Assembly (NCBI GenBank): GCA_015062585.1
Contig: SUUJ01000008.1
Location: 2,837-66,836 of the forward strand
Direction: 5' to 3'
Length of the DNA: 64,000 nucleotides
From: Alphaproteobacteria bacterium
GTDB taxonomy: Bacteria > Pseudomonadota > Alphaproteobacteria > RF32 > CAG-239
The position numbers and the translations under genes were made by a program. Under the pieces are notes generated by a model. It ran no database searches. It worked only from the letters and a program-made list of their open reading frames with translations, and had not been told where the DNA came from. Positions 14,411-44,533 of this stretch are shown piece after piece. Numbering within the stretch: the stretch's first letter is position 1; each line of letters begins with the position of its first letter.

Positions 14411-14431
14411 TTGACAAACAAGGGCAAAACG

Positions 14432-15649
14432 ATGGTGTATAATGTAGAAAAAATAAGAAAAGATTTTCCTATATTTGACATTAAGGTAAATAACAAGCCT
14501 AATACTTTTCTTGATTCCGGCGCTTCGGCTCAAAAACCCAAATGCGTAATTGACGCAATGGTTGATATTTACACCAAAGAATATGCCAATGTTCATCGCG
14601 GTTCTTATCTTTTGTCCGAAGAAATAACTTATAAATATGAGCAAGCTCGTAAAACGGTGCAAAAGTTTATAAATTCGGTCAAATCCGATGAGATTATTTT
14701 TACTCGCAATGCTACCGAGGCAATCAATTTGGTAGCATCAACCTGGGGTAAAAAGTTTTTAAGCAAAATTGACGAAGTTATTATTACCGAGCTTGAACAT
14801 CACGCCAATTTGGTACCATGGCAGGTTTTGCGCGATGAAATAGGTTTTGAATTAAAAATTTGCAAAATAAACGATGACGGCTCATTTAATTTTGACGAAT
14901 TTAAAAATATGCTTTCAGGCAAAACTAAACTTGTTGCCGTAAGCGGAATGTCCAATGTTTTGGGAACAATATTACCGCTAAAAAAGATAATATCGGTTTC
15001 ACATAAAGTCGGTGCCAAAGTTTTAGTCGATGCTTGCCAATTGGCTGTTCATCAAAAAATAGATGTTCAAGATATGGATTGTGACTTTTTGGCTTTTTCC
15101 GGTCACAAAACTTACGGACCGACCGGAATAGGTGTGCTGTATGGTAAATATGATATTTTAGATACCATGCCTCCTTATCAATATGGAGGCGATATGGTAA
15201 ATATCGTAACCTATCAAACCACGACTTTTGATGCTCCGCCGGCTCGATTTGAGGCCGGAACACCGGCTATTGTTCAAGCCATAGGTTTAGGCAAGGCACT
15301 TGAATATATGATGAATTTGGGGCTGGAAAATATTGCCAAACACGAAAAAGAATTAACTCGTTATGCAACGGAAAAACTATCTCAAATCAAAGGCCTTAAA
15401 ATGATTGGCACAGCCAAAGACAAAGGCGGAGTTTTTTCATTTGTTGTAGATAAAATTCATCCGCAAGATTTGGCTTTTATCCTAAATAAAGAGGGTGTTT
15501 CGGTAAGAGTAGGTCATCATTGCGCCGCACCTCTTGTACGCCGCATGGGATATGAATCTGTTGTCAGAGCAAGTCTTGGTTTGTATAATACCAAAGAAGA
15601 TATAGATATTTTGTGCCAAGCGATTAACAAGGCAAAAACATTTTTCTAA
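14432..15649 (+). CDS. sufS: cysteine desulfurase SufS
   Basis: LDSGASAQKP, ANVHRG, FSGHKTYGPTGIG and RVGHHCA motifs; ATG 14432 preferred as start. Confidence 0.95.
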   Translation: MVYNVEKIRKDFPIFDIKVNNKPNTFLDSGASAQKPKCVIDAMVDIYTKEYANVHRGSYLLSEEITYKYEQARKTVQKFINSVKSDEIIFTRNATEAINLVASTWGKKFLSKIDEVIITELEHHANLVPWQVLRDEIGFELKICKINDDGSFNFDEFKNMLSGKTKLVAVSGMSNVLGTILPLKKIISVSHKVGAKVLVDACQLAVHQKIDVQDMDCDFLAFSGHKTYGPTGIGVLYGKYDILDTMPPYQYGGDMVNIVTYQTTTFDAPPARFEAGTPAIVQAIGLGKALEYMMNLGLENIAKHEKELTRYATEKLSQIKGLKMIGTAKDKGGVFSFVVDKIHPQDLAFILNKEGVSVRVGHHCAAPLVRRMGYESVVRASLGLYNTKEDIDILCQAINKAKTFF

Positions 15650-15663
15650 GGACTTTAATAAAA

Positions 15664-16053
15664 ATGGAAGAAATTACAGACATCAATCCTGATGATTATA
15701 AAAAAGACTATATTGCCAAAGCAGGCGCGCCAATAAAAGATGGCATTAAACAAAGTACGCGCGAAGCAATTATTGACGCCTTAAAAACCGTATCAGATCC
15801 CGAAATTATGATAAATATATGGGATATGGGTTTGGTTTATAAAATCGAGCAAAAAGAAAATGCCGATGTCTATATCGAGATGACTGTAACTTCGCCAATG
15901 TGTCCGGTTGCCGGCGTTTTACCGCAACAAGCCGCTGAAGCTGTTGCTTCTTTAGAAGGTGTGGGTGAGGTTGAAGTAAGAATAGTTTGGGAGCCGGCTT
16001 GGAGCTTGGCTAACCTGAGTGACGAAGCCAAAGAAATGTTTGAGATGTTTTGA
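15664..16053 (+). CDS. DUF59 / SufT-like Fe-S maturation protein
   Basis: DPEI..NIWDMGLVY, MTVTSPMCP and WEPAW motifs. Confidence 0.9.
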   Translation: MEEITDINPDDYKKDYIAKAGAPIKDGIKQSTREAIIDALKTVSDPEIMINIWDMGLVYKIEQKENADVYIEMTVTSPMCPVAGVLPQQAAEAVASLEGVGEVEVRIVWEPAWSLANLSDEAKEMFEMF

Positions 16054-16056
16054 TTG

Positions 16057-16728
16057 TCAGGCCAGTTCACAAAAATTAAATATTGCTTTTTCAGTTTCGC
16101 AATATATTTTTTCAAAATCTTCGTCTGATTCTGCTTTCCAAGTTTCTAAAGTGATGACGGGAATTTGTTTTTCGATTCCGGCCCAAGTTCCGAAGGATCC
16201 GTTTGTCGGATAACCGATATTATCTACCAATTTATAACCGCAGTCTAAAGACATTTTTTCAGCCAATTGTCTTGCGGGCCCGTCATAATCAACCAAATGA
16301 AGGTCAGAATGTATTGAAAGTATGCGAACAGGGCTGATTTTTTCTACCCAAGTCATCATATTTCTTGTTTCTTGTTCTGACGCAGGTGTTCCGGATGACA
16401 GTTTTTTAGTATGCGGATTGACACTATCAGGTAAAAAGTTTTTTGTCGGATAGTTTCGATTTAAGTCAACCTCATTAGAGTTTCCTCGGGTAAACAATTT
16501 TTTACCGCTGGGATTAAGACAAGGAACAATATATATATTATATGATGAAGTAAACTTATCTGTTTTTAATTTTTCTATCAATTTTTCTAAGATGTACTCA
16601 CCCTCAGGCTCATCACCGTGAAATCGTCCGATGAGAAGAATATTGGGATTATTTATGTCTGTTTGAAATTTCCACAAATTGATACAATTTGCAAAATTAT
16701 CATAAGCAACTTCATCAATGGCTATCAT
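16057..16728 (-). CDS. M14 zinc peptidase, murein tripeptide amidase MpaA-like
   Basis: HGDE, NPSG, VDLNRNYP, SIH, GYPTNGSFGTW and TLE motifs. Confidence 0.85.
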   Translation of the reverse strand: MIAIDEVAYDNFANCINLWKFQTDINNPNILLIGRFHGDEPEGEYILEKLIEKLKTDKFTSSYNIYIVPCLNPSGKKLFTRGNSNEVDLNRNYPTKNFLPDSVNPHTKKLSSGTPASEQETRNMMTWVEKISPVRILSIHSDLHLVDYDGPARQLAEKMSLDCGYKLVDNIGYPTNGSFGTWAGIEKQIPVITLETWKAESDEDFEKIYCETEKAIFNFCELA

Positions 16729-17453
16729 AATGTGTTATTTCCCCGAGACTGAGATTTAAAAAGCTTTTCTTTAGCTTCAATTCTTTTCAATACTTTCGAA
16801 AAATTGCTTATACCGATAGTAACCGGGCTGACACAAAATTCAGCATGCCTGTCATTGTTTTCCGTAATATGGTCAAAATCGGTAGTTTTGGCAATTTGCT
16901 CGGCGCAAAGAACATCTTCGTGAAATCTCTTTCCGTTGGTATTATTGTCATTATATTCTACAATAAATTGTTCAAAACCTTGTTCTTGCAAAGTAGGGAT
17001 AACACTTTTCATAAAAAACGAGCCCCAGCCTTTTTTTTGCGCTTCCGGTGCTAAATAAATTTGATTTAATATCAAAGTGTTTTCGCTGTACTTAGGATCT
17101 TTCAGGTAACGGATTTTTCTTTGTCTGGAAATAGTCCAACCATCCAAAAAACCATGTTCGTCTTCAACGGCTTCAAGATTTTTAATATTTCTGTAATCTT
17201 TTGGAATTTCATTAAGACGCATAACACCGCAAACATTTTCACCGTTGTACAAAACAAAGATAAAAGGTTCTTGCCCTTGTTTTTGTTTTTCAGCCCAATT
17301 TTTAAGCTTTTTGATAAAAGAGCCTTTGGTATAAAGCTGCATTTCCGCACTGCTCTTATATTGTCTTGAAAGCTCGTTATACGAGCGCATGTATATGTCA
17401 GCCAACGGCAAAATTTCTTTGACACTTCCTGAAAATTTTTTTACCTGCAACAT
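16725..17453 (-). CDS. GNAT family acetyltransferase
   Basis: LNQIYLAPEAQKKGWGS (motif A) and N..G.RF. Confidence 0.75.
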   Translation of the reverse strand: MLQVKKFSGSVKEILPLADIYMRSYNELSRQYKSSAEMQLYTKGSFIKKLKNWAEKQKQGQEPFIFVLYNGENVCGVMRLNEIPKDYRNIKNLEAVEDEHGFLDGWTISRQRKIRYLKDPKYSENTLILNQIYLAPEAQKKGWGSFFMKSVIPTLQEQGFEQFIVEYNDNNTNGKRFHEDVLCAEQIAKTTDFDHITENNDRHAEFCVSPVTIGISNFSKVLKRIEAKEKLFKSQSRGNNTL

Positions 17454-17631
17454 TTTGCTAAATCCTCAATCAAAAAATATTGTAAAACATATACTATGCG
17501 GTGTTTTTTTTGTCAAGTATTTGACTAAAAATAAACATTGTTTAAATGTTATGTATATAGCCTTTTTTCTTGCGCTGATTTTTTTTAGATGCTAAATATA
17601 TTACATACGAAAAAAAATTATAGAGATAAAA

Positions 17632-18033
17632 ATGACAATAGAAGAACTGATTGAAAATTTTGAGTTTTTGGATTCTTGGGAAGACAAATATAAATATATT
17701 ATTGAACTTGGCGAAAAGCTTGAAGTCCTGCCCGAACACCTTCATACACAAGAGTGGCAGGTAAAAGGATGCCAGTCACAAGTTTGGTTGGTTCCGCACA
17801 AGCAAAACGACGGAACAATACACTTTATCGGCGATAGTGACGCCATGATTGTTAAGGGTTTAATAGCTATCGTTTTGATGATATATAATAATTTAACCTC
17901 AGATGAGATAAAAAAACTTGCAATTAACGATATTTTTGCTTCAATAGGATTACAAGAGCATTTAAGCCCTTCGCGTCGAAACGGTTTAGAAGCTATGGTC
18001 GAAAAAATTAAGCATTATGCGGATGTTTTATAA
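17632..18033 (+). CDS. sufE: cysteine desulfuration protein SufE
   Basis: WEDKYKYIIELG, VKGCQSQVW, DSDAMIVKG and LSPSRRNG motifs. Confidence 0.95.
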   Translation: MTIEELIENFEFLDSWEDKYKYIIELGEKLEVLPEHLHTQEWQVKGCQSQVWLVPHKQNDGTIHFIGDSDAMIVKGLIAIVLMIYNNLTSDEIKKLAINDIFASIGLQEHLSPSRRNGLEAMVEKIKHYADVL

Positions 18034-18049
18034 CTAAAGGTTTTTCTTC

Positions 18050-19252
18050 ATGAACATACACGAGTATCAAGCAAAAAAAATATTGAGTGAATATGGTATC
18101 AAAATACCTGACGGTATGATTGCTTATACTCCCAAAGAAGTAGGACTGGCCGCTGAAAAAATTTCCAAAAGAGGACCTTGGGTACTGAAAGCGCAAATAC
18201 ATTCAGGCGCTCGTGATAAAGGATATTTTATTGAAAAATATTCGGGAAAAGATGGCGGAGTTCGGTTTATTAAATCAAAACGCCACCTATATGAAAATGC
18301 TGAGCAAATGCTCGGTTCTACACTGGTTACGGTTCAAACAGGACCTCAAGGCAAAAAAGTCAGTCGCGTTTATGTCGAGAAATTTATCAGAACTGAAAAA
18401 TGTTTTTATATGGCCATTGCAATAAGCACCATGACAGCCGATTTAACTCTGATAGTTGCGCCTCTGCATTATCGTGATATTATAAAAGTAGCATTAAATC
18501 ATCCGGAAAAAATCTTAAAAATAAAACTTGATATGAATGCCAAAGTTAAACCGCAACAAATACAAGAGGTTATGGAATTTTTAAAACTTCCGTCTCGTTC
18601 AGCCAAGCATTTGGAAGATTTGATTAACGGAACGCATCAGGCATTTTTGAAAACAGATGCTTCAATGATTGAAATAAATCCTGTGGGTTTGCTGAAAAAC
18701 GGTCAATTGATTGCTCTTGATTCAAAAATTTCAATCGATGATTATGCCTTAAATCGTCAGCCGGAGCTCTTAAAATTTAATGATGAGAGCGAAGCTTCGG
18801 AGCGCGAACTTCAGGCTTCTAAATACAAGTTTAAATATAGTGAATTTGACGGTTCGGTAGGCTGTATCGTTAACGGCGACGGTATCGCTTTGGCTGCAAT
18901 GGATATGTTGCGCAATCGTTCGCAAGGAACAGCTTGTTTTATCAATGTAAAAGGTGGTGTTGATAAAGATAAAATAGCTTCCGGTATAAAAATAATTATG
19001 ACTAACCCTAAAGTTGAAGGTATATTATTAAATATTTTGGGAGGTTTTGTCAGATGTAACCTTATTGCCGACGGTATCGTTTCGGCAGCTTCAGAGGTCG
19101 GATTAAATGTACCGATGGTCGTTCGTTTTGAAGGTACCAACAAAGATATGGCAAAAGAGATTTTGGAAAATTCTAGACTTCCGGTAATTTGGGCCGATAC
19201 AATGGAAGAATCTGTTGAAAAATTGGTTCAAGCAATGGAGGAGGCTGCATAG
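18050..19252 (+). CDS. sucC: succinyl-CoA synthetase beta subunit-like protein (divergent)
   Basis: MNIHEYQAK, EINP, GGFVRC and VVRFEGTN retained; GGRGK changed to GARDK, NGAG to NGDG, NFLDVGGG to CFINVKGG. Confidence 0.85.
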   Translation: MNIHEYQAKKILSEYGIKIPDGMIAYTPKEVGLAAEKISKRGPWVLKAQIHSGARDKGYFIEKYSGKDGGVRFIKSKRHLYENAEQMLGSTLVTVQTGPQGKKVSRVYVEKFIRTEKCFYMAIAISTMTADLTLIVAPLHYRDIIKVALNHPEKILKIKLDMNAKVKPQQIQEVMEFLKLPSRSAKHLEDLINGTHQAFLKTDASMIEINPVGLLKNGQLIALDSKISIDDYALNRQPELLKFNDESEASERELQASKYKFKYSEFDGSVGCIVNGDGIALAAMDMLRNRSQGTACFINVKGGVDKDKIASGIKIIMTNPKVEGILLNILGGFVRCNLIADGIVSAASEVGLNVPMVVRFEGTNKDMAKEILENSRLPVIWADTMEESVEKLVQAMEEAA

Positions 19253-20122
19253 ATGTCTATTTTTGTAAATAAAAACACCAAAGTTATTTGCCAAGGTATA
19301 ACAGGTACACAGGCTTCGTTCCATGTTCAACGCTCACTGGACTATGGTACAAAAATTGTCGGAGGTATCACCCCCGGAAAGGGTGGAAGTATGCACCTTA
19401 ATTTACCGGTTTTTGATACCGTAGCCGAAGCAGTTAAAGAAACACAAGCTACGGCCAGCGTTATGTATGTTCCGCCACAGGCTGTTAAAAAAGCTGTTCA
19501 AGAAGCGGTGGAAAATGAACTTGATTTGGTTGTAACCATTACCGATAGAGTTCCCTTAAAAGATATGCTTGAAATAAAGGCAATGCTAAAGGGAGCGAAA
19601 ACTAAGCTTATCGGTCCTAATACTCCGGGAATTATCACGCCGGAAGAGGCTCGCTTGGGGATTTTTCCTGAGAATATTCACAAAAAAGGCGATATCGGTG
19701 TTGTGTCACGTTCATCAACCTTAACCTATGAAGCGGTATTAGAAATAAATAGAGCCGGTATGGGACAAACTTCGGTAGTCGGCCTTGGCGATGATGTCTT
19801 AATCGGTATAGATTTTGTTGATGTGCTGACAGCCTTTCATGCTGACAAAAAGACCAAAGCAATAGTTATGGTCGGACAGCTTAATGGTGGTTTTGAAGAA
19901 GCCGCTGCCGAATGGTATAAAAGTATTCCCAATAAAAAGCCTGTTATTGCTTTTGTCGCCGGAAATGCTGTTCCTTTCGGACATAAAATGGGATACGCCG
20001 GAGATATTCTTACTAAAGGTAATATATCTGTTTTGGATAAAAAAGATATACTTGCCGCTGCCGGCATTACGGTTGTAAATAATGTAAACGATATCCATAC
20101 TGAACTGGCCAAGCTTAAATGA
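19253..20122 (+). CDS. sucD: succinyl-CoA synthetase alpha subunit-like protein lacking the catalytic His
   Basis: KVICQGITG, YGTKIVGG.TPGKGG, GPNTPG and SRSSTLTYEA present; MGHAGA changed to MGYAGD. Confidence 0.85.
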   Translation: MSIFVNKNTKVICQGITGTQASFHVQRSLDYGTKIVGGITPGKGGSMHLNLPVFDTVAEAVKETQATASVMYVPPQAVKKAVQEAVENELDLVVTITDRVPLKDMLEIKAMLKGAKTKLIGPNTPGIITPEEARLGIFPENIHKKGDIGVVSRSSTLTYEAVLEINRAGMGQTSVVGLGDDVLIGIDFVDVLTAFHADKKTKAIVMVGQLNGGFEEAAAEWYKSIPNKKPVIAFVAGNAVPFGHKMGYAGDILTKGNISVLDKKDILAAAGITVVNNVNDIHTELAKLK

Positions 20123-20847
20123 GCTTTATAAAAGACATCATAAATTTTATATTACCTCCGCGATGTATGATATGCGGCAAAGTTCTTGATAAAGACAAGG
20201 GACTTTGTGATGAATGCATATCTCAAATAGAATTCCTAAATCATGCAATATGTCGACGCTGCGGTTATCCGATTGTGGAAGCAGGGGAAGGATTATCTGA
20301 AAAGTTAATTTGCGGCAATTGTATAAAATCAAAGCATCATATCCCGTTTAGAATGTTGCGCTCAGCTTGTGTGTATGATGATTTTTCCAAAAAGTTGATT
20401 TTAGATTTCAAATTTTATGATAAAACCGATTTAGCACCGCTTTTAGCAAAAATGATGTATGTTGCCGGTAAGGATATTTTTGCTTCGGGTATAGATATGA
20501 TAATTCCGGTACCGTTACATTATACCAGATTGATAAAACGCCGTTATAATCAGTCGGCATTACTGGCTAAAGAATTGGGCAAACTCACAGGAATAAAAGT
20601 TGATTACAAAACACTGATAAAAAGGAAAATGACCAAAGCCCAAGTTGATTGCAGTGGCAAAGAAAGGCTTACTAATGTCAAAAATGCTTTTTATGTGAAA
20701 TATCCTGATAAAATAAAAGGCAAAAGAATTTTGTTGGTAGATGATGTATTAACTACCGGAAGTACCTTAAATGAATGCGCTAAAGCTGTTAAATCAGCCA
20801 AACCGAAATCAATTGATGCCCTAACCGTGACCAGAGCAATATCTTAG
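20119..20847 (+). CDS. comF: ComF family amidophosphoribosyltransferase-like protein
   Basis: N-terminal CxxC zinc motifs, PVPLH, RRYNQS and LLVDDVLTTGST. Confidence 0.9.
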   Translation: MSFIKDIINFILPPRCMICGKVLDKDKGLCDECISQIEFLNHAICRRCGYPIVEAGEGLSEKLICGNCIKSKHHIPFRMLRSACVYDDFSKKLILDFKFYDKTDLAPLLAKMMYVAGKDIFASGIDMIIPVPLHYTRLIKRRYNQSALLAKELGKLTGIKVDYKTLIKRKMTKAQVDCSGKERLTNVKNAFYVKYPDKIKGKRILLVDDVLTTGSTLNECAKAVKSAKPKSIDALTVTRAIS

Positions 20848-21950
20848 ATAAGCTCCAACATTTCTTGATAATGCGCTATTGCCTGACGATATTTGGGTAT
20901 ATTGTTAAAAGATTTGTGTATGGATAAATATAAGGTAGCTTCTACATTGCACGGTATGTGCTCCAAATATACCAAATTACTTTTAGGTATAATCAGCGGA
21001 ATTAAACAAATTCCTGCTCCATACTCAACCATATCCAAAAGAGCAATATTCGGATTTTTAATAAATTTTGTTTTTTTACAATCATCAATAAAATCGCAGT
21101 AGTTTTCATTTGCGTATGATTGATTCCGCCCGTCTAAGACAAGATGATTATTTTTAACATCATCAATATCACGCGGAGTTCCAAAGTTTGTCATATATTC
21201 CGAACTGGCAAAAAAACCGCAATGTATCTTGCGAGTATAAGGAATAATAAGACATTTTTCATGAGGCTTTGAAAAGCTTATTGCAATATCCCACTCATCC
21301 ATATGCAAATCAGGATTATCGGTAAATACGATAATATCTTGACTCGAAGCTTCATTAAGTGAGTTCACCGACAGATTTATGCCTTTTTCTAAGGCCAATC
21401 TGATATTGTTATTGTGAGTTGCTTTTTGTGATATTATGTATTTAATAAAGCTGTTTATACGATCAAACTTGATAATGATGGCAGTGCCTTCATCTGTTAA
21501 AAAAGTACCATGACTGTCGCTGTATAACAAGGGAACTTGTAAGGCGTTTTGCAAATAGTCAATATAAAGATTTATGGTTTCAATCGAAGTTGCTAATTTT
21601 TGCGATGCGTTTCTCTTGTTTCTATAAAACGATATCGCCTTAAGGTAAAAAATTCCGCGTACATTTTTTATATCAAAAATATTTATTTTGTTGCTTCTGA
21701 CTTCCCAGTTTTCAATATCCAAATTTTTTAATTTTGTGATGAGCTCATTTGCTTTAGAAGTCAAAAAACAACCATTTTTATGAGGTTCTTGCAGTTTTGC
21801 TCCGATATCATTTTCTAAAAAGTTTATATATTTTGTCAGGGTGTCAACTGATATTCCTATAACAGAAGCGGATAAACGCTTGCTCTTTGTCTTGTTTAAC
21901 AATATAAGCAGCAAAAGTCCTTCAAGTCGTTGTAAATCTCGTTTATTCAT
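20844..21950 (-). CDS. LysR-like regulator with two tandem N-terminal HTH domains
   Basis: Two LysR HTH-like repeats (SVDTLTKYINFLENDIGAKL...LT; SIETINLYIDYLQNALQVPL...LTDEG), plus substrate-domain motifs DIAI, FASSEY and GAGICLIP. Confidence 0.7.
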   Translation of the reverse strand: MNKRDLQRLEGLLLLILLNKTKSKRLSASVIGISVDTLTKYINFLENDIGAKLQEPHKNGCFLTSKANELITKLKNLDIENWEVRSNKINIFDIKNVRGIFYLKAISFYRNKRNASQKLATSIETINLYIDYLQNALQVPLLYSDSHGTFLTDEGTAIIIKFDRINSFIKYIISQKATHNNNIRLALEKGINLSVNSLNEASSQDIIVFTDNPDLHMDEWDIAISFSKPHEKCLIIPYTRKIHCGFFASSEYMTNFGTPRDIDDVKNNHLVLDGRNQSYANENYCDFIDDCKKTKFIKNPNIALLDMVEYGAGICLIPLIIPKSNLVYLEHIPCNVEATLYLSIHKSFNNIPKYRQAIAHYQEMLELI

Positions 21951-23243: not shown

Positions 23244-24401
23244 TTGCGCATCCAACAAACATTGGAAAAATATGTACCGCTGATTAGCAATATGCTGATA
23301 CCGGCGCTTATATATATTATTGCTTTGCTGTATTTTTTGGCCGCAAATGATTTTAACGCGTCATTAGGTATGTTTTTTCACAATGGCTTTTATGTCTTAA
23401 GTATATTAGGAATAATCATTCTCCTAAATTTTAATATAAACAGACATATGTTTTGTTTAATTGTCAATTTGATTGCCTATGTATTGATAAATCAGATAAA
23501 AAGAGAATATGGCGCGGAATTTGACCAAACAATATGCTTTGGTTATTTAATGATACTACTGCCGCTTAATTTGTTGATTTTTTACATTTTGGGACGATTT
23601 CGTTTTTTAAGTGTTCGTTCACTGCAGTTAGTTATGTTAATATTATTGGAATACGGTATTGCCGATGTTTTGAACAAACACAATATAAATCTAAATATTT
23701 CGTTTTTTGGTGTAAACATACTGTCATGCTTTTTTTATTTTTTGCTCATATTGATTGCATTTATAAAATCTGTAAATTCTAATCGAAATTATGATTATAC
23801 ATTTATGTATGTCGCAATATCTACCGCAACAGGGCTTTATTTTGCCGAAAATTCTACCGGCTTGAGTATGTTTTTCTTTATTGCTCAACTTATAATTTTT
23901 ATCGATTTGGTATATACCCTGACTTATAATCACTTTTATGACGAAACAACCGGTTTTTACAGTCGTAACTCGTATTTGCTTAAATCAAAACATTTTCCGT
24001 TCAAATATAATTTGGGAATTGTCAGTATTGATAATTATGACAAATTGCAAAAAACATTCGGTTACAAAAAACAAAAAATTCTTACAAATTTGATAGCCGA
24101 AGTTATCCAAGAACTAACCCCCGAAGAAGAAGTTTTTCGTTATGCCGCAGATCAATTCGTGGTGCTGTACAAGGATAAGGATAATAAAGAATCTTTTGCT
24201 CACTTGGATAACATCCGAAGGATTATTGCCGGTCTAAGCTTTAGTTGGTCAATAAAACAAAAGCCGATAAAATTGACCGTATCATGTAGCTTGGCCGAAA
24301 AAAAACGCAGTGACGCCAGTTCTATCGAAGTTTTGATGCGCGCGGACAAGGCTATGCAAAAAACCTTAAAATTCAGCCACAATGTAACCTCTCGCGGTTA
24401 G
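23244..24401 (+). CDS. membrane protein with a degenerate GGDEF domain
   Basis: About 8 TM segments, then D..TG..SR, IDNY.K...FG, RYAADQF (in place of GGDEF/GGEEF) and RADKAM. Confidence 0.8.
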   Translation: MRIQQTLEKYVPLISNMLIPALIYIIALLYFLAANDFNASLGMFFHNGFYVLSILGIIILLNFNINRHMFCLIVNLIAYVLINQIKREYGAEFDQTICFGYLMILLPLNLLIFYILGRFRFLSVRSLQLVMLILLEYGIADVLNKHNINLNISFFGVNILSCFFYFLLILIAFIKSVNSNRNYDYTFMYVAISTATGLYFAENSTGLSMFFFIAQLIIFIDLVYTLTYNHFYDETTGFYSRNSYLLKSKHFPFKYNLGIVSIDNYDKLQKTFGYKKQKILTNLIAEVIQELTPEEEVFRYAADQFVVLYKDKDNKESFAHLDNIRRIIAGLSFSWSIKQKPIKLTVSCSLAEKKRSDASSIEVLMRADKAMQKTLKFSHNVTSRG

Positions 24402-29576: not shown

Positions 29577-30515
29577 ATGAAAGTAGGAATAGTCGGTGCC
29601 GGCTCGGTCGGTGCGGCCACAGCCTTTGCTCTGATTATGCGAGGTGTTGCCAGAAAAATAACTTTGGTTGATATTGATGCAAAAAAGTCTTATGCCGAAG
29701 CAACCGATATTGCTCACGCCGCTCCTTTTGCCTATGCAAACAAAGTAAAATCCGGTGACTTTGAAGATTTATGCGGTTGTGAAGTGGTTATTATTACAGC
29801 CGGAGCCAATCAAAAAAAAGGCGAAACCAGAACAGATTTACTTGAGCGCAATGTTAAAATATTTGCAAATATTATTCCCAAAGTTGTTGAAAATGCACCA
29901 ACATCGACCTTGGTTATTGCAACCAATCCCGTTGATATAATGACCGAAGTAACCTTAAAATTATCAGGCTTTCCCGTTACTCGTGTAATCGGAAGCGGAA
30001 CGATTTTGGATACTGCGCGTTTTCGTACAGACTTAGGCTATCATCTGGGTGTCTCGCCAAAATCTATTCATGCCAATGTCTTAGGCGAACATGGTGATAG
30101 CGAAGTTTTGTGTTGGTCAAACGGCGATGGTGGCACAATACCGCTTCATGAACTGGCTTTGGACTTAAACAAGCCTCTGACTGACGAGGTAAAAAAACGC
30201 ATTGATGACGATGTCAGAAACGCAGCCTATAAAATAATTGATGGTAAAGGTGCAACATTTTACGGAATTGCCGGTGGGTTGTGCCGTATATGCCAAGCCA
30301 TAACCACTAACGAATATGCAATTTTGACCGTTTCGACTCATCACAAAGAAATTTTAGGAATTAAAGATGTATCTGTTTCAATGCCTACTATTATCGGCAA
30401 AAGAGGTGTGCATAATGTTTTATATCCCAAACTCGATGAAAAAGAAACATCAGCTCTGAAGAAGAGTGTCGAGAAGATGAAGCAATTGTCTGAAACAGCC
30501 CTCGCGATGATATAA
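29577..30515 (+). CDS. ldh: L-lactate dehydrogenase
   Basis: GAGSVG, TAGANQKKGETR (Gln at the LDH specificity position), TNPVD, LDTARF, GEHGDSE and KGATFYGI. Confidence 0.93.
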   Translation: MKVGIVGAGSVGAATAFALIMRGVARKITLVDIDAKKSYAEATDIAHAAPFAYANKVKSGDFEDLCGCEVVIITAGANQKKGETRTDLLERNVKIFANIIPKVVENAPTSTLVIATNPVDIMTEVTLKLSGFPVTRVIGSGTILDTARFRTDLGYHLGVSPKSIHANVLGEHGDSEVLCWSNGDGGTIPLHELALDLNKPLTDEVKKRIDDDVRNAAYKIIDGKGATFYGIAGGLCRICQAITTNEYAILTVSTHHKEILGIKDVSVSMPTIIGKRGVHNVLYPKLDEKETSALKKSVEKMKQLSETALAMI

Positions 30516-33521: not shown

Positions 33522-33971
33522 TTACATATTAAGAAGCATTTCTGCCTCGTTAATTTGTTCCATATACTTGATATGGGTTTTGCTACTGTTCATGATCAGA
33601 GGTGTTTTGGATATATTCATCCAATCAATTAAAGTTTTTGTCTTCTTCTGATTTGGATGTATTCTTAGTTCGTCCAAAGCAACATCTATCAACCATGATT
33701 TAAGTTGAATGGGGCCGATATAACTCGGTATCAACTCCTTCTTTTCTTTTTTGGGCAACTCCTCTAAAAGCTTTTCAGCTTTAATAGCTTCATCATACAG
33801 ATGTTGTCTTTTTAGAGAAACAACAAAGTCCTCAAGACATATTGCTAATTGCACACATTCTTTAGAGATGTTTTGTTGTTTTTTGATTCTTTGATGAACT
33901 GCCAAATTCATTACCCACAGCCTAAAGCTGATAATTTGCAACGGTGTGCTGCCGGAATAATTTTTCTTCAT
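33522..33971 (-). CDS. hypothetical protein (ORFan, internal repeat)
   Basis: Two K/R-x-W-L/V helical repeats; similar to 34038..34508. Confidence 0.6.
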   Translation of the reverse strand: MKKNYSGSTPLQIISFRLWVMNLAVHQRIKKQQNISKECVQLAICLEDFVVSLKRQHLYDEAIKAEKLLEELPKKEKKELIPSYIGPIQLKSWLIDVALDELRIHPNQKKTKTLIDWMNISKTPLIMNSSKTHIKYMEQINEAEMLLNM

Positions 33972-34037
33972 TTTTTTTGTTTTTAAATTGTTGATGAAAA
34001 GAAGTACCTATTTTAAGGTCTTCCAAATTTTTTCGAT

Positions 34038-34508
34038 TTAACCTGCAAACCTAGTAAGTTGAGAAACGATACTCGTATACTTACCTAAAAATTCAAGGTT
34101 TCTTGTTTTGATAAGGTCTTTTGACATCTCTAACCAAAACATCAACCTTTTGGCCTTTTCCTTAGCAGCAGAAATGTTTGCGCATTCCTTAAATTCGCAA
34201 ATAGCCAATTCCGCCAGCCACAGTTTTATTTCTGTAAGATCAACAGGGATTCCTGATTGAAATCTCTTTGATGGTGTTAATTGAGATTTCAAATACTCTG
34301 CATATTTGATATCATCATCAGAAGAGCCTGTTCCATACATACTTGCATGATGATTATTTATCATCTGCCATAATCGGTCAATTTTCTTTTGACTTTCGTT
34401 GGTTTTTAGGTCGTTTATTCCTAATTGTGACAGCCACAGTTTCATGGCGTCCATTCCGGGTTTTTCAAAATAGTTACCCTCATAGCTTTTTTCTTTTGCC
34501 ATAGCCAT
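34038..34508 (-). CDS. hypothetical protein (ORFan, internal repeat)
   Basis: MKLWLSQLGI / IKLWLAELAI repeat; has its own consensus promoter. Confidence 0.65.
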   Translation of the reverse strand: MAMAKEKSYEGNYFEKPGMDAMKLWLSQLGINDLKTNESQKKIDRLWQMINNHHASMYGTGSSDDDIKYAEYLKSQLTPSKRFQSGIPVDLTEIKLWLAELAICEFKECANISAAKEKAKRLMFWLEMSKDLIKTRNLEFLGKYTSIVSQLTRFAG

Positions 34509-34550
34509 TTAATTTATTAAATTAGACATCGTAATTTTTTTTATGAAGCG

Positions 34551-34622
34551 ATTATACTATTTTTGGAAAATTTTGTCAACATCGTAAAAATAAAAAAAAG
34601 AGTGCCATTTTTAGTGACACTC
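34551..34622 (-). promoter_or_regulatory. terminator plus consensus sigma70 promoter unit (copy 1)
   Basis: TTGACA-N17-TATAAT, with hairpin gagtgtcactaa...tggcactc and a T-run upstream. Confidence 0.8.
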
Positions 34623-34641
34623 TAAAAAAAAATATTTTTTT

Positions 34642-35040
34642 TTACAATTCGACACCATAAAGTGTCAGAGTCGACATTTGCGAGTCAGTAGCTTCCTTTT
34701 TAAAACAAAGCTTTTCTCTTTTTGACAGGATGATATTCTCACCTCTGCTTTTAAGCACATTAGCTTTCCACAGGATGAACTCACATGCTGACATGAGTCT
34801 TTTTGCGTTCCTTGTGTGTCCCCTTTTCGTCTCTAGGTTATGGATCATTTTATTCAAGTCTCCGATTTGATCTTGAACATCGGTCTCGGATCCTATTAAA
34901 ATGTCTCTTTTCTCTTCTAGATCGTGTATCACTGATGATAGTTGATTAGGGTCTTGAGGGCTTGCCGCTTCAAAGAAAGCTTTAGCTTCTTTCATGATCG
35001 ATGCAACTTTGTCGTTGCCGGTTCTTTTTGTTGTTGCCAT
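34642..35040 (-). CDS. hypothetical coiled-coil protein (ORFan)
   Basis: ORF, likely start MATTK at 35040. Confidence 0.6.
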   Translation of the reverse strand: MATTKRTGNDKVASIMKEAKAFFEAASPQDPNQLSSVIHDLEEKRDILIGSETDVQDQIGDLNKMIHNLETKRGHTRNAKRLMSACEFILWKANVLKSRGENIILSKREKLCFKKEATDSQMSTLTLYGVEL

Positions 35041-35185
35041 AAGTTTGATTGATTTTAAGTTAAACAATGTGTTTTTTTCAACCACTTTGTCTTCAAAGAG
35101 CTATTGTTTAAATTTCAGGAATCAATAATAAAATTATGACATCCGCTTAACAATAATTCTCATATATATAGTAGTTGATAAACAG

Positions 35186-35280
35186 AATATACCATTTTTG
35201 GAAAATTTTGTCAACATACAAAATGCAATAAAAAATCATTTATTTTTAAACAAAAAAAGAGTGCCACATTAGTGACACTC
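35186..35280 (-). promoter_or_regulatory. terminator plus sigma70 promoter unit (copy 2)
   Basis: TTGACA-N17-TATATT with a nearly identical spacer to copy 1, and the same terminator hairpin. Confidence 0.75.
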
Positions 35281-35301
35281 ATCAAGTTTGTTTTTTAAGG
35301 C

Positions 35302-35661
35302 TCAAAAGCTTGCTAAGATTTTCTCGAACTTTGTTCGTTGTGAGAAATCAGCGAGGCTGAAGAAAAGTTCTTTAATCTCGATCATTTCTTTCTTTAATCT
35401 TGCCGATGGGCAAGCTTTTGCAAGAATTTCAAACCGCCACAGGGTAAACCCTATGTCATTCATTTTAACCCTTGCTTCGTGAGGAAGTATTGCCTGAGGA
35501 AGTGTGCTCAGGCTAATTTCTGCACTTTCTTTAGCGTTGCCTTTAAGCTTTAGTGATTTTACATACTCTCTCAGAGAGTTTATCTTTGCCATATCGACAA
35601 CTTCTTTGTTGATGGCATCTACTAAGGTCTTCACCTCAGTACTTCTAGAAACTTTCGTCAT
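35302..35661 (-). CDS. hypothetical protein (ORFan)
   Basis: 119-aa ORF with a TTGACA promoter upstream and a terminator downstream. Confidence 0.6.
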   Translation of the reverse strand: MTKVSRSTEVKTLVDAINKEVVDMAKINSLREYVKSLKLKGNAKESAEISLSTLPQAILPHEARVKMNDIGFTLWRFEILAKACPSARLKKEMIEIKELFFSLADFSQRTKFEKILASF

Positions 35662-35865
35662 AATTTGTTAGTATTAAAAGATTATGTATAATGTTTAATG
35701 CAGAAAATGTATCATTTTTTTTACCTCCTGTCAACATATTTGACAAAAAATTTCCAAAATCAATCAATCGCCATTTTTTTGTTTGCTTGAGGTAGAAAAA
35801 TGTGGTATAATGAGTTATTGCTAAAAATTATAAATAGATTTATTAACAAATTAAAACAACAGAGT

Positions 35866-36306
35866 ATGAGACTATTTTTATTCGGACTACTGCCTGTAGT
35901 CGTTGGTGCTATGATATCTATTGTAGCCGTAAATTATGAATCGCAATTCGCCAATGTTGAGCCTGTGGGCGCAATTTCGGGGGAAGAACCGGTTTATGTT
36001 AAATATCTGGATGCCAGCGATGCTGTACGTGTGAAAGACGAGAGGCTGTTATATGGATATTCCAAGTATGATGACAACTTGTTCATCATTCTGGATGACC
36101 ACTCTCGCTCTCAAGTGGAGTATGATACTCCCTGTTATGTAAAAATAACAGAAGAGACCACCGACCATAACGGCGAGAAATACGCCGTTTGGCGACTTTC
36201 ATCATCAAAAGAAGCTAATTTCTTGAAGATATGGAAGCTGTGTGGCTGGGTATTAGTTTGCTTTGGAGCAATATCCATAGCACTTATAAGTACATCCAAA
36301 TATTAG
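35866..36306 (+). CDS. hypothetical membrane protein (TM at both ends)
   Basis: Promoter TTGCTT-N17-TATAAT overlaps the track's start, so ATG 35866 is preferred; terminator follows. Confidence 0.65.
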   Translation: MRLFLFGLLPVVVGAMISIVAVNYESQFANVEPVGAISGEEPVYVKYLDASDAVRVKDERLLYGYSKYDDNLFIILDDHSRSQVEYDTPCYVKITEETTDHNGEKYAVWRLSSSKEANFLKIWKLCGWVLVCFGAISIALISTSKY

Positions 36307-36423
36307 CATTAAGGAGGTCTTGGCGCAAAGCCGGACCTCTTCTTTATTTTTAAATATTCTTCTTGATTAGACAAAAAAATATGCTATAATTTCGGTATAA
36401 AACACTATAAATCTGAATATATT

Positions 36424-36903
36424 ATGCGAATGAAAATTTTTTTGGCAATTACTGTCATAGTGACGGCTGTTGCGTTTGTTTGTGCTTTTGAGCACAAGCC
36501 ATTATTAGAAGTGACGGTAACCGATGTAAAACACGAAGTGTTTCATTCGATTGTTACCACAATGCTGGACAGTGAAACTCTTTCAGAATCAGTCTTTAGA
36601 ACAGATTCTGTTTTGGTTCGCGAGGAAATGCGTTGCAAATACAAATCATTGCAACAAGTTGACGAAAATGAGTTTCAACTCGAAATCATTGTTACTAAAA
36701 ACAAGAAACTCCAAGTTGGAGAAACCTACTATCTTTATGTCGAAAACGATGTTAAAGACAATACTCAGGTTTACCGCTTGAGTGAGAAGCCGGACTTTGC
36801 CTATGGAGCAGGTCAAATTATATCATGGCTTTTCATGATGATATCTGTGTTTTTGGTAGTTTTGATTATTCTGGCAAAAAAAGGTATCGTTGCCTTGGGT
36901 TAA
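36424..36903 (+). CDS. hypothetical membrane protein (TM at both ends)
   Basis: Same architecture as the previous ORF, including a V(W/Y)RLS motif before the C-terminal TM. Confidence 0.65.
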   Translation: MRMKIFLAITVIVTAVAFVCAFEHKPLLEVTVTDVKHEVFHSIVTTMLDSETLSESVFRTDSVLVREEMRCKYKSLQQVDENEFQLEIIVTKNKKLQVGETYYLYVENDVKDNTQVYRLSEKPDFAYGAGQIISWLFMMISVFLVVLIILAKKGIVALG

Positions 36904-39034: not shown

Positions 39035-39277
39035 GCACTTAGTTCTTTGATTTAGTATAATATGTTTCTTTATAATCCGTGTTGACAAAATATACAAAAA
39101 TGATATATTAAAGCCATTCAAATTGTATAGATATGCCTAGTTATTTTGTTATAGAGTTTTGATAATCATGTTTTTTGATTGTTGATTTTCTGTATTTTAT
39201 GGCATACGAAAAATAAAAATATGAGCTATATAAAGATAGCCTCAAAAATAAAAAACAACTCAAAAAACAACAGATTT

Positions 39278-40498
39278 ATGGAAAAACTAAATTTCATCAA
39301 AAAAATTTGGAGAGCCCTTGAGGGGGTAGAGTGCTGGTTTCGTTACTGTGTGCTCGGTAAGAAAAGATTCATCGATTGTGAAGTATGCTTTGAAAATGAG
39401 CCCAAAATTATTCAATGGCTCAACCGCAAGTTCAGAAGCGATGCACACGCCGGAAAACTGCCGGAAGAACAAATCCTACGGATGCTGAAAAAGCATCCTG
39501 CAGATATCAATAATCTGCCTGTGCAAAGTGTTTATTTGCGTGAGTATCCTCAGCTCATGGGTTATTTGGGGCTGAGAGACTTGATCGTTCACGCAGAAAT
39601 TTCAAATTTCAAAGAGACACTGTATAGAGCTATTGAGAATCAAAGCGGAGAGTTCCTCAATCTAATGCTGAGTTCTGAGAAATATGGCATTGAAAAAAAG
39701 CCATACGGCAAAATAGCTGCTAAGTCATTAAGCTATCTATCTAATGAACAGCTAAAAAATGTCAATACTCTATTAAACAGGAATATTAAGTTCCCATGGA
39801 TTAAAGGTGTTCCGCATTTTTGCGATGAAGCAGCCTCATTCATCATTAGCAAGATGAATGGAGAACTTTGCTTCCTCGCAGTAGTCAGCCGACTGGACAT
39901 AGCCGCAAATCTTTGTATGAACAATACAGAGATTTTGGAAAAAGTTCAAGATCTTCTGATAAAACATTTCAGTGGGTGGTGCTTCTTCGAAAGATTCAAC
40001 CGAAATGTTGTAGATCTTCTCAATTTGTTAGAAAAAAACAACAAATGTGAAGGGATCATTAGAGCGCTGATATTTGCCAAGGCATTGGATATCTCTCATT
40101 TAAGGCAGCTGTTGATTAACACCCCAAATGATTCGCACGAGGTTATGGTGCGTTTTGTAAAAGGTGTTTTATCCGGAGACTACAAAGACTATCTGGATGT
40201 AAAATCCGGTGGAAATATTACAAAGGGAAAACTTTGTAAAGAAGCAGTTAAACTACTGAATGCCGATCAAGCTATCCAGTATGTTGCTAAAGGGGGGCAT
40301 CTGCAAGACAGCGAAATAATTGCTCTGATAGAGCGAGGATTTCCGATTGCTAGGATCGAAGCGATATTAGGCGAGAACAGAGAAATATCGCAGAATCTGA
40401 GAGAAATTATCATTCGCAAAAAGTTGCTGACGAACTCTCTTAAGGCTGTAGATGGGTTGCAACCGGAGATGTTTGAGTTAATCCAATCTCTGAGCTAA
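39278..40498 (+). CDS. large hypothetical helical protein (ORFan)
   Basis: Long ORF, likely start MEKLNF at 39278; own TTGACA promoter at ~39082 and a terminator. Confidence 0.7.
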   Translation: MEKLNFIKKIWRALEGVECWFRYCVLGKKRFIDCEVCFENEPKIIQWLNRKFRSDAHAGKLPEEQILRMLKKHPADINNLPVQSVYLREYPQLMGYLGLRDLIVHAEISNFKETLYRAIENQSGEFLNLMLSSEKYGIEKKPYGKIAAKSLSYLSNEQLKNVNTLLNRNIKFPWIKGVPHFCDEAASFIISKMNGELCFLAVVSRLDIAANLCMNNTEILEKVQDLLIKHFSGWCFFERFNRNVVDLLNLLEKNNKCEGIIRALIFAKALDISHLRQLLINTPNDSHEVMVRFVKGVLSGDYKDYLDVKSGGNITKGKLCKEAVKLLNADQAIQYVAKGGHLQDSEIIALIERGFPIARIEAILGENREISQNLREIIIRKKLLTNSLKAVDGLQPEMFELIQSLS

Positions 40499-42609: not shown

Positions 42610-42745
42610 TGCGTTAACCTATTATATATTCGCTATAGATTTGAATTTGTCTTTCTTTAAGCTTTTTGTTTTTAAAGGGGGATGTTTCGGGTTTATTTAG
42701 AGGGTTTGATTGGTTGGCTTCCTGTAAGATAGTCTTATGGGAAAA
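42610..42745 (+). promoter_or_regulatory. conserved structured 5' leader (copy 1)
   Basis: Aligns with 44380-44512; hairpins show compensatory changes. Confidence 0.55.
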
Positions 42746-42763
42746 TATCAAAATTCATGTTTT

Positions 42764-44281
42764 ATGTTCCAAATTTTCAAAAACTTCGTGAAATCCACAA
42801 AAAGTTTGTGGTTCCACTTTACCCACAAGGGTAGAAAAAATCGCACAGACTACATCCCAGTAGATGTGCAAATCGAAATTGCTTATTTCGAAAAAAAGCT
42901 GAGACACAACCCCAAAAGAGCTTTCATCATGACTGATCATGCCTGGTCCAAGGCATTTCGTTTGTGGATGTTCCAAAACGGTATGTTTGAGCTATTTGGC
43001 CAAATTTCCTCTGATGAAGAGATAAAAGAATTGTTGGCGCAAAAGGCTGACTTATCCATCGCGAAAAAGGTGTTGTCGGACAACACACCCAGCCGTAAGC
43101 TATTAGAGGAGTTAGACTATTCTGACCCCTATATCAAAGAGCTTGTGAAAGCCGTTCCATTGGCATTCCAAAATGCGCCTACGTATAAGGTTATCGAGCA
43201 AAAAGATGTCTTAGAGGTCTTAGTTGACACTTTCTTAGATAAAAAATGGTTCGACTATTTGAATTCTTACATGCTAAAAATCGTCAACAGCAAAAAACAG
43301 GATTATGAAGACATAATTCTTAAAATCGCTGACAGGTCGATTAACGGAAAAGAGATTGCTAAGGTTATTCCAACCCTTAGGATTGATTATCCAAATGTAT
43401 ATGTTTGGGTTCGCGAGAACATCGAACGTCTTACATCACCCACGGATGTTATGCTAGCAGCCTTCGTCCCTAAAGATCTTCCTTCTGATATCAATATTGA
43501 TATTGACAATATCAGCGACATCAAAACGAAAGGAACTATGGACAAGCATAGTGATGCGTTGGCTTGGCTTAGGTTACTCATCGAAAACATAAAATCCAAA
43601 GAGGTGTTTAATACTTTGGTGTCATCGCTCGATGACATCAAAAGGATGAATGAAACCTTATTTGAGCAACTATGCGAGAAGCTTGCTGGGTATCACTATG
43701 CAGGTAAAGATTTTCTTGCAAAGGCAACCCCAAAGGCTAAGATGATAGTCTTACGTAAAAAAGCAGACACTACAGATTTGTGGTCATATTATCCGTTTAC
43801 GAGCTGGCCTGAAGATATACAAAAGGAGGCTTTGGATATTTTGGTAAAACGCAGTGGTATATCCTATTATAATGCTGCTCAATTGCCGGAAAATCTGCGA
43901 TACTATGTTTTCGAGCGAGCGGAAGTTTACGCTCAAATTTCCACTATTTTCAATGGCAATCATGATGACCTCAATAGCCTGTATTCAAAGAAGCTTTCAA
44001 AAGAGGTTGAAGAAGTCATAGTTAAGGCTACTGCTGCTAACTTTCGTGGAGATATGGGAATGAGTTTCGACATGAAGCTGGGCTACGCTCAAAAGGCTAG
44101 GAAATATATAGAGGAACATCATATTGATCCTTCAGTTTTTCGAAAGTATCTGCTCAAGCTCAGTGAAGATCAGGTTCGAGATCTTATTGTGAAGAGGAAG
44201 AGCTTTTCTCGAGCTGAATACAGCGAGCTTATGGCATCGAGATTTAAATTTTTAGCACATTTGGTTAAGGTTGAAGACTAA
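42764..44281 (+). CDS. large hypothetical helical protein (ORFan, paralogue of next)
   Basis: Long ORF; ATG 42737 lies inside the leader hairpin, so 42764 is preferred. Confidence 0.75.
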   Translation: MFQIFKNFVKSTKSLWFHFTHKGRKNRTDYIPVDVQIEIAYFEKKLRHNPKRAFIMTDHAWSKAFRLWMFQNGMFELFGQISSDEEIKELLAQKADLSIAKKVLSDNTPSRKLLEELDYSDPYIKELVKAVPLAFQNAPTYKVIEQKDVLEVLVDTFLDKKWFDYLNSYMLKIVNSKKQDYEDIILKIADRSINGKEIAKVIPTLRIDYPNVYVWVRENIERLTSPTDVMLAAFVPKDLPSDINIDIDNISDIKTKGTMDKHSDALAWLRLLIENIKSKEVFNTLVSSLDDIKRMNETLFEQLCEKLAGYHYAGKDFLAKATPKAKMIVLRKKADTTDLWSYYPFTSWPEDIQKEALDILVKRSGISYYNAAQLPENLRYYVFERAEVYAQISTIFNGNHDDLNSLYSKKLSKEVEEVIVKATAANFRGDMGMSFDMKLGYAQKARKYIEEHHIDPSVFRKYLLKLSEDQVRDLIVKRKSFSRAEYSELMASRFKFLAHLVKVED

Positions 44282-44512: not shown

Positions 44513-44533
44513 CTTAAAAAAATATCAAACAAA

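Follow-up and report, generated by a model that had tools for sequence, protein, structure and literature searches.

The 64-kb window analysed here (the whole 64,000-nucleotide stretch of contig SUUJ01000008.1, from an Alphaproteobacteria bacterium) contains two adjacent genes whose products resemble the β and α chains of succinyl-CoA synthetase (SCS), with tyrosine in place of the histidine that is phosphorylated in SCS. Judged from the sequences, the pair belongs to an old, monophyletic and strongly conserved Tyr-type branch of SCS, in which the phosphohistidine mechanism has been abolished. Site I, where the phosphorylated loop, the phosphate, the acid substrate and the CoA thiol meet, appears to have been rebuilt from T123, S154, D179, Y246 and D249 of α and D266, N288 and K290 of β (E. 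coli numbering, used throughout for positions in the family). The pattern looks like rebuilding and not erosion: positions serving the His and the CoA thioester have been released, acidic residues, a Tyr and a Lys have become fixed, and the ATP site is untouched. We take the fixation of matching new residues alongside a retained ATP site as the signature of a new function rather than of loss. Our tentatively preferred reading is that the pair forms a re-tooled, ATP-using αβ complex that is no longer SCS and is linked to the SUF system of Fe-S cluster assembly.

The β-like gene occupies 18050..19252 and the α-like gene 19253..20122, both on the + strand, and they encode proteins of 400 and 289 residues respectively. 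Both open reading frames (ORFs) are intact and abut at 19252/19253, in a window that is AT-rich (GC approximately 0.31–0.42). They had been reported as intact, adjacent and full length in a preliminary description made from the DNA letters, and this was confirmed. The β-like protein matches the Pfam domains ATP-grasp_2 (172 bits) and Ligase_CoA (72 bits), and the α-like protein matches CoA_binding and Ligase_CoA. With Pfam matches above the gathering scores for both chains, and the two genes adjacent, the domain set of SCS is complete. Among the NCBIfam models, the α-like protein passes both NF004230 (361.6 against a cutoff of 336) and TIGR01019 (359.5 against 353.2), and the β-like protein passes NF001913 (390.2 against 370) and narrowly misses TIGR01016 (372.1 against 375.55). 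With phmmer, almost the whole of the α-like protein can be aligned to SCS α from human, pig and E. coli, and the β-like protein aligns end to end with E. coli SucC.

The SCS reaction is described as proceeding through enzyme-bound succinyl-phosphate and a covalent phosphoryl-enzyme (PMC2440562), with the phosphorylated residue, His246α, swinging between two sites and steadied by Glu208α at the CoA site and by Glu197β at the nucleotide site (PMC10342173). In the window, codon 19994–19996 of the α-like gene is TAC, within GGA TAC GCC (Gly-Tyr-Ala), and this Tyr lies opposite the His of MGHAG in phmmer alignments with the human and pig SCS α structures, the human chains setting MGHAGA against MGYAGD. 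Both the DNA and the alignment therefore bear out the substitution reported in the preliminary description. The residue is Tyr248 in the window protein, within the mobile-loop core GYAGD (19991..20005, + strand), where Asp251 takes the position of Ala249α. The site-I helper Glu208α is replaced by Gln209 (19877..19879, + strand). Because position 246 is Tyr and position 208 is Gln, the canonical mechanism is lost: phospho-acceptor and helper are both gone, and the textbook phosphohistidine route is blocked (PMC10342173, PMC2440562), as had been proposed. The other changes noted earlier in the α-like protein are also present, namely GQLNGG for GEIGG, GLGDD for GIGGD and ITDRVP for ITEGIP; to these can be added SRSSTLTYE for SRSGTLTYE and PNTPG for PNCPG.

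To place these changes in a family context, 200 Tyr-type sequences were set against a full-length His-type panel of 49 (E. coli and 48 representatives). Of the α positions conserved at 85% or more in this panel, just seven are altered in the Tyr-type: E97 (D in 83%, otherwise A, E or N), G154 (to S), G179 (to D), E208 (to Q, R or K), I209 (to L), H246 (to Y) and A249 (to D). The pooled family of 306 distinct Tyr-type sequences, whose assembly is described below, gives the same picture. Position 246 is Tyr in all 306 and His in all 49 His-type sequences. Ser155 of the window protein (19715..19717, + strand), equivalent to Gly154α at the tip of the α power helix, is Ser in 305/306 relatives, compared with Gly in 46/49 His-type sequences. 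Asp180 (19790..19792, + strand), equivalent to Gly179α and lying within GLGDD, is Asp in 305/306, compared with Gly in 44/49. T123 is Thr in 305 of the 306, and position 249 is acidic in almost all of them (Asp in 292, Glu in 11). The glycines of the mobile loop are retained, G245 (G247 in the window) in 306/306 and G248 in 256/306. The alignment of the α-like proteins also has an invariant CoA-type Rossmann loop (GxTGxQA), PNTPG and GYAG.

Other α positions vary. Position 208, which is Glu in 47/49 His-type sequences, is occupied in the family (n = 306) by Q (186), K (40), R (25), A (18), G (9), D (7), S (6) and T (5), and since so many residues occur we consider it to be out of constraint. 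Position 97, the Glu of ITEGIP, is Asp98 in the window and presumably corresponds to a catalytic residue of SCS; among the 306 it is D in 195, Y in 60, A in 25 and E in 10. K42 of α is variable across the same sequences, and with E208 and E97 it makes three canonical helper positions that are no longer constrained. It had been suggested that the His four residues upstream of the Tyr might serve as an alternative acceptor. As a family feature this is ruled out, since His is found there in only 189/306 sequences, with Tyr in 40, Asp in 40 and Arg in 20.

The β subunit combines a retained ATP-grasp site with an altered C-terminal domain. Residue counts for β rest on 78 sequences, and the alignment used for the lid insert (A2) on 60. 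The residues invariant in 78/78 are K46, R54, E99, E197, N199, D213, N264, G265, G320 and G321, of which we take K46, R54, E99, N199 and D213 to be nucleotide and Mg ligands, as in the E. coli ADP complex. In the window protein the site-II residues are Glu208 (equivalent to E197β), Asn210 (N199) and Asp224 (D213), encoded within 18671..18721 on the + strand; each is conserved in 78/78 and is also invariant in A2. The Gly-rich nucleotide-lid loop of the ATP-grasp domain carries a 10-residue insert after Arg55 (residues 56–65, DKGYFIEKYS; 18215..18244, + strand), which is not found in the E. coli, Francisella or Campylobacter β chains. Within the insert, Gly58 and Phe60 are invariant in the 60 relatives.

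The tip of the β power helix reads NGDG (18872..18883, + strand) where canonical chains carry NGAG, so that Asp277 takes the position of Ala266β; Asp is found there in 69/78 β-like sequences. Further along, the C-terminal domain reads CFINVKGGV (18935..18961, + strand) where canonical chains have NFLDVGGGA. N285C, D288N, V293 and I322F are each fixed in 78/78, and position 290 is Lys in 76/78 and Arg in the other two. The window protein has SGARDK and lacks the STEGG motif, and E107 and the STEGG stretch are variable among the 78 sequences. All of the β features listed in the preliminary description (GARDK, NGDG, CFINVKGG and the missing EGG loop) were found.

Structures were predicted with AlphaFold2, which had been put forward as a check on the pair. 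The α model has a mean predicted local distance difference test score (pLDDT) of 90.3, with the loop at residues 239–256 below 50 in this monomer model, and the β model has a mean of 87.1, with the block containing the lid insert at 80–87. Foldseek places the α model on SCS α chains with template modelling (TM) scores of 0.92–0.94 and root-mean-square deviations of 2.1–2.5 Å, in line with an SCS-type fold. In the solved 4-hydroxybutyrate–CoA ligase 8WZU, a sulfate is described at the tips of the two power helices, contacting G163, A164, G310 and G311, and the loops lining the substrate site are given as P128–C130, G163–I165, G187–K189, G310–P312 and V354–D356, beside H256 of the swinging loop (PMC11494057). 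Residues 110–252 of the α-like protein align with residues 116–260 of the 8WZU chain, and from the offsets of these ranges T124, S155, D180 and Y248 would correspond approximately to C130, G163, residue 188 and H256. By their correspondence to the described motifs, the new residues are thus predicted to cluster in site I. A further point of reference is PDB 7msr, in which, according to the entry title, the E105Qα mutant of human SCS traps succinyl-phosphate. By alignment offsets, human E105α is equivalent to E97α of E. coli and to Asp98 here.

The Tyr-type pair is not a peculiarity of a single genome but belongs to a large monophyletic family. All of the 120 best homologues of the α-like protein, which are 70–95% identical to it, have Tyr. 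A genome scan using one genome per species found 213 relatives, and 80 loci were kept. All 79 complete α-like ORFs at these loci have Tyr, a count obtained with peptide patterns that took in PFGHKMGY and hence biased the scan; the remaining ORF is cut by a contig end. Representatives of clusters at 50% identity were then searched exhaustively, and the best 150 were classified at the His246 site as His (89), site outside the pairwise alignment (49), Tyr (5) or other residues (7). There is a score gap: the family's own representative (P0121) gives 369 bits at 59% identity, and the next matches give at most 298 bits at approximately 50% identity. A second large branch opens with representative P0128, which is 47% identical; it and its 116 best homologues all have Tyr (117/117). 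Pooling gave 306 distinct sequences, all with Tyr, at identities down to 47%. A tree of 125 sequences places all 68 Tyr-type tips in a single clade (support 1.0). The stem of this clade is long, at 0.52 substitutions per site, compared with a mean internal depth of 0.58. The tree was midpoint-rooted and the immediate sisters of the clade are two long-branch oddities, so that its sister relationship is unreliable.

According to the record titles, the pair is carried by uncultured Alphaproteobacteria of the gut and rumen. Among them are Proteobacteria bacterium CAG:495 and Candidatus Scatocola faecipullorum, the latter placed under Rhodospirillales by NCBI; we take the carrier group to be the one named RF32 in GTDB. 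Look-alikes in the ESM Atlas comprised nothing but automatically named SCS-α clusters. Three loci (L053, L057 and L058) come from records titled Bacteroidaceae, Lachnospiraceae and Eubacteriales respectively, and have the same sufS-sufT-sufE-sucC-sucD-comF cluster with α-like proteins 60–62% identical to that of the window; mislabelling or contamination of the bins is a likelier explanation here than gene transfer. Five divergent SucD-like representatives also have no catalytic His (P0177, Phe; P0202 and P0203, Tyr; P0208, Asn; P0222, Ala) and do not have the T123/S154/D179/D249 signature. The catalytic His of SCS α may have been lost more than once.

Purifying selection on both genes is strong and matches that on sufE. 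For the closest pairs of genomes, the Nei–Gojobori ratio of nonsynonymous to synonymous substitution rates (dN/dS) is 0.02–0.10 for both genes. In the 29 genome pairs that allowed a comparison of all four genes of the unit described below, the median dN/dS is 0.042 for sufE, 0.031 for the β-like gene, 0.035 for the α-like gene and 0.056 for comF. The Tyr codon itself shows synonymous turnover (TAT in 76 and TAC in 4), as do other key codons, with four Ser codons at S154, GAT and GAC at D179, and four Thr codons at T123.

In the window the genes are arranged in the order sufB, sufC, sufD, sufS, sufT, an mpaA-like gene and a GNAT gene on the opposite strand, sufE, the β-like gene, the α-like gene and comF. 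The sufE gene (17632..18033, + strand; Pfam SufE, 155.2 bits) encodes a sulfur-acceptor protein and is the first gene of a tight four-gene unit; its Cys motif GCQSQVW is invariant in 60 sequences. It lies directly upstream of the β-like gene in 78/80 loci, the two misses being contig ends, with a gap that is mostly 0–22 nt and is 16 nt in the window. The junction between the β-like and α-like genes is −1 or 0 in most loci. The comF/gntX-family gene (20119..20847, + strand) encodes a double zinc ribbon and a phosphoribosyltransferase domain (Pfam DZR_2 and Pribosyltran), and its start codon ATG (20119–20121) overlaps the stop codon TGA (20120–20122) of the α-like gene. It is directly downstream of the α-like gene in 79/80 loci, the sole miss being a contig end, and the two genes overlap by 4 nt in 28 loci, with most junctions falling within 8 nt.

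Further upstream, sufS (14411..15649, + strand) encodes a cysteine desulfurase (NCBIfam TIGR01979, 560.7 bits against a cutoff of 475.1) and is present upstream in the same orientation in 67/80 loci. It is followed by a sufT-like gene (DUF59/FeS_assembly_P; 15664..16053, + strand), which scores 117.4 bits with TIGR02945, under the cutoff of 143.4, and is found in 71/80 loci; in L059 and L070 it is recognised by Pfam FeS_assembly_P. We conclude that sufE, sucC, sucD and comF stay tightly together wherever the locus could be assessed, mostly with sufS-sufT in front and with shuffled flanks. The preliminary description had drawn attention to the position upstream of comF: comF is indeed downstream, but the informative unit is this whole four-gene group with the sufS and sufT genes that usually precede it. 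In the deep-branch loci L051, L059 and L070 the cluster sufS-sufT-sufE-sucC-sucD-comF stands alone, with sufBCD not adjacent, and the flanks are otherwise unrelated (Obg, RsfS, EF-Tu, ribosomal S4, a NUBPL-type ATPase and a SIS-domain protein). In L080 the suf genes have been moved and inverted, and sufE-sucCD-comF are still together. In a scan of 17300–21100, promoter-like sites numbered 9 (14.1 expected) and terminator-like sites 2 (3.0 expected). Both terminator-like sites are on the − strand, so that no terminator-like site on the + strand splits the unit within this region; the scan is otherwise uninformative. The association of ComF with Fe-S genes is not unique to the Tyr-type clade, since E. 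coli K-12 has a second, independent neighbourhood of this kind, in which yhgH (gntX), a gene of the comF family, is immediately upstream of nfuA, for an Fe-S cluster carrier, on the same strand and with a 58-nt gap (NC_000913.3, 3544882–3546199).

The two − strand genes between sufT and sufE are a gene for an mpaA-like amidase (16057–16728; NCBIfam MpaA 98.3 bits, under the cutoff) and one for a GNAT acetyltransferase (16725–17453; Pfam Acetyltransf_1). This pair (16057..17453) occurs in only 13–14 of the 80 loci and is outside the conserved unit. A GNAT gene beside a His-less pair resembling an acyl-CoA synthetase recalls the fused architecture of Pat/PatZ, but the association is not conserved. 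Downstream of comF, conservation falls away: the genes from queA onward are common to only 14 loci. A gene convergent with comF (20844–21950, − strand) is found in 13/80 loci and encodes a 368-residue protein with a LysR-type helix-turn-helix at residues 102–155, which is not N-terminal. At 23244–24401 (+ strand) there is a gene for a membrane protein with a C-terminal GGDEF-like region (TIGR00254, 35.8 bits, just under the domain cutoff of 37.4), possibly a degenerate diguanylate cyclase; its conservation beside queA is limited to the 14 closest loci. Elsewhere in the window, tandem + strand genes at 42737–44281 and 44417–45967 encode proteins of 514 and 516 residues with no Pfam or NCBIfam family, and these are distant paralogues (23% identity over 475 residues, E = 2e-8). 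Pfam and NCBIfam likewise return no match for a run of six small ORFs of 119–168 residues at 33522–36903 (two + strand, four − strand) or for two longer ORFs, at 49306–51306 (− strand, 666 residues) and 39179–40498 (+ strand, 439 residues). No TCA (tricarboxylic acid) cycle gene was found in the 64-kb window, which has one gene of the L-lactate dehydrogenase type (29577–30515) as the only one bearing on the fermentative lifestyle suggested in the preliminary description.

Comparison with known systems places the pair close to SCS in architecture and apart from it in detail. It shares with SCS (E. coli 1JKJ and 2SCU, and the human and pig GTP- and ATP-specific enzymes) the abutting genes in the order β then α, the four Pfam domains, the ATP-grasp residues K46, R54, E99, N199 and D213, Glu197β and the CoA-type Rossmann loop. 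The α-like protein is 48–51% identical to the solved SCS α chains, which it matches at TM scores of 0.92–0.94. It differs from SCS in having Tyr for the phosphorylated His246α, a variable residue for Glu208α and Asp or a variable residue for Glu97α, together with G154S, G179D and A249D in α and A266D, D288N and G290K in β, the 10-residue lid insert and the missing STEGG motif. In typical Alphaproteobacteria sucCD lies beside mdh and sucAB; here, unlike that arrangement, the neighbours are sufE and comF and there is no adjoining mdh or sucAB.

A second useful comparison is with the Pat/PatZ proteins (type I and II GNATs; PDB 9ISQ and 9IT0), which belong to the same superfamily and match the α-like protein weakly (E approximately 2e-4). 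In Pat, a His-less domain resembling an acyl-CoA synthetase is described as binding acetyl-CoA and acting as a metabolic sensor (PMC8556138). The likeness, as far as that description goes, is that a catalytic His is missing from an otherwise conserved module. Pat is however a single chain with a GNAT domain, whereas the window has two separate SCS-type subunits with approximately 50% identity to true SCS, and Tyr and new acidic residues fixed at the active site. Among proteins of 507–2000 residues no Tyr-type fusion was found, which is weak evidence; the best matches were ordinary SucC-SucD fusions or unrelated fusions, at most 56% identical. Other members of the ADP-forming acyl-CoA synthetase (ACD) superfamily (ATP-citrate lyase, citryl-CoA synthetase, malate–CoA ligase and 4-hydroxybutyrate–CoA ligase) have the same domain set and act on other acids or in other reactions, and the ATP-dependent dimethylsulfoniopropionate lyase, mentioned with PDB 7CM9, is likewise a diverged member (PMC11494057). 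Those described there use a swinging-loop His, such as H256 of 8WZU, where the window pair has Tyr. The window proteins fail the models for the malate–CoA ligase (MtkAB) β subunit (NF010647, 341.5 against a cutoff of 604) and for 4-hydroxybutyrate–CoA ligase (29.5 against 1300). A literature search, with subscription papers outside its reach, found no description of a His-less or Tyr-type SCS, of an MGYAG or GYAGD motif, or of a link between SufE and SCS. For the metabolism of the RF32, CAG-495 and CAG-239 gut Alphaproteobacteria it returned community surveys only, and the available part of PMC8035907 makes no mention of Scatocola, RF32 or CAG-495.

We now consider what the pair might do. It was described initially as probably catalytically dead, and kept for a new role or with altered chemistry. 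The second part of this stands, given Tyr in all relatives and a dN/dS of approximately 0.03; the first is not supported, since the ATP-grasp residues and Glu197β are invariant and the loop glycines are largely kept (G245 in 306/306, G248 in 256/306). Simple decay, a recent pseudogene, or an error in one codon would be easy to produce, because His (CAC or CAT) becomes Tyr (TAC or TAT) by a single base change. We regard this explanation as negligible, and as ruled out by Tyr in 306/306 sequences from many independent assemblies, ORFs intact at 79/80 loci, the low dN/dS and the synonymous turnover of the Tyr codon; decay had been predicted to show as relatives with His and a dN/dS near 1, and the opposite was found on both counts. 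A genuine SCS working through a phosphotyrosine carrier, with the new Asp residues acting as base and Mg ligands, seems to us improbable. Protein phosphotyrosine is said to hold enough transfer potential to phosphorylate ADP. Such an enzyme would account for both chains passing NCBIfam SCS equivalog cutoffs, for a level of constraint typical of a housekeeping enzyme, and for retention of the ATP site, Glu197β, the loop glycines, the CoA-type loop, and N264/G265 and G320/G321 of β. Yet His246α is the residue described as catalytic and phosphorylated (PMC10342173), the Glu mutated in 7msr has become Asp in 195 of the 306 sequences, Tyr in 60 and Ala in 25, acidic residues stand at the tips of both power helices, which normally bind phosphate (PMC11494057), and the neighbourhood concerns Fe-S clusters and sulfur rather than the TCA cycle.

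The choice lies mainly between two readings. In the one that we tentatively favour, the αβ complex would still bind and use ATP, and the loop carrying Tyr246 and Asp249 would replace His246 and Glu208 as the mobile element that visits the ATP site. There the Tyr would most likely be phosphorylated, with Glu197β or Asp249 as the base, and the loop would then dock in site I, now acidic and probably requiring Mg, where it would act on some new substrate or partner whose most plausible connection is with the mobilisation of sulfur by SufS and SufE. The other reading, nearly as likely but still in doubt, is of a non-catalytic pseudoenzyme: a sensor or scaffold that would bind nucleotide together with CoA or acyl-CoA and pass on the energy or acyl-CoA state to SufE/SufS or to ComF. 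On this reading, which we consider possible though doubtful, the Tyr-Asp loop would owe its fixation to a place in a site that binds a ligand or partner. Fixation of H246Y with E208, E97 and K42 of α variable, the invariant CoA-type loop and the tight operon with sufE and comF all fit a pseudoenzyme. It is harder to reconcile with the conservation in 78/78 of every ATP-grasp residue for Mg and nucleotide, with retention of the loop glycines beside new residues fixed at the catalytic centre, and with overall constraint equal to that on SufE, although all of these are compatible with the sensing of ATP or ADP. Glu197β, also 78/78, is a further difficulty, because the sole role described for it is at the nucleotide site, in support of the active-site residue (PMC10342173).

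Several points weigh against the ATP-using complex. Phosphotyrosine as a transfer intermediate is an inference, and the variability of E97, E208 and K42 of α would fit a stop in catalysis as well as new catalysis. The clustering of the new residues in site I is predicted from sequence correspondence and not from distances. The locus scan was biased towards Tyr forms, although the protein searches were free of this bias. Gene order kept within one order-level lineage may be partly inherited rather than selected, and the acetyl-CoA-sensing, His-less domain of Pat/PatZ is a non-catalytic precedent within the superfamily (PMC8556138). A more specific version of the ATP-using complex is that the Tyr246/Asp249 loop is a phospho- or acyl-tyrosine shuttle running from the intact ATP-grasp site to the acidic site I in the service of SufS/SufE sulfur trafficking. 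It could, for example, bring about the ATP-dependent activation of a carboxylate or thiol that receives the persulfide sulfur of SufE, or an ATP- and CoA-gated control of the desulfurase. We consider this shuttle improbable as a specific proposal, and there is a modest chance that the Tyr-type pair hides new chemistry; if the shuttle were real, it would be a new covalent mechanism in a textbook family and an unrecognised SUF component in gut Alphaproteobacteria.

Few covalent catalytic residues of central metabolism are as well known as the phosphohistidine of SCS, and here a whole family, represented by hundreds of distinct sequences and at least 80 species-level gut and rumen genomes, has exchanged it for Tyr. 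The sources name the Tyr-type proteins succinate–CoA ligase subunit alpha, and because of this annotation metabolic reconstructions of gut bacteria probably credit these organisms with a step of the TCA cycle and of substrate-level phosphorylation that they possibly do not have. The fixed place of the pair between sufS-sufT-sufE and comF offers a lead to an accessory function in Fe-S cluster or sulfur metabolism, and the Tyr-type cluster may also have something to say about what ComF-family proteins do outside competence, a role so far unexplained.

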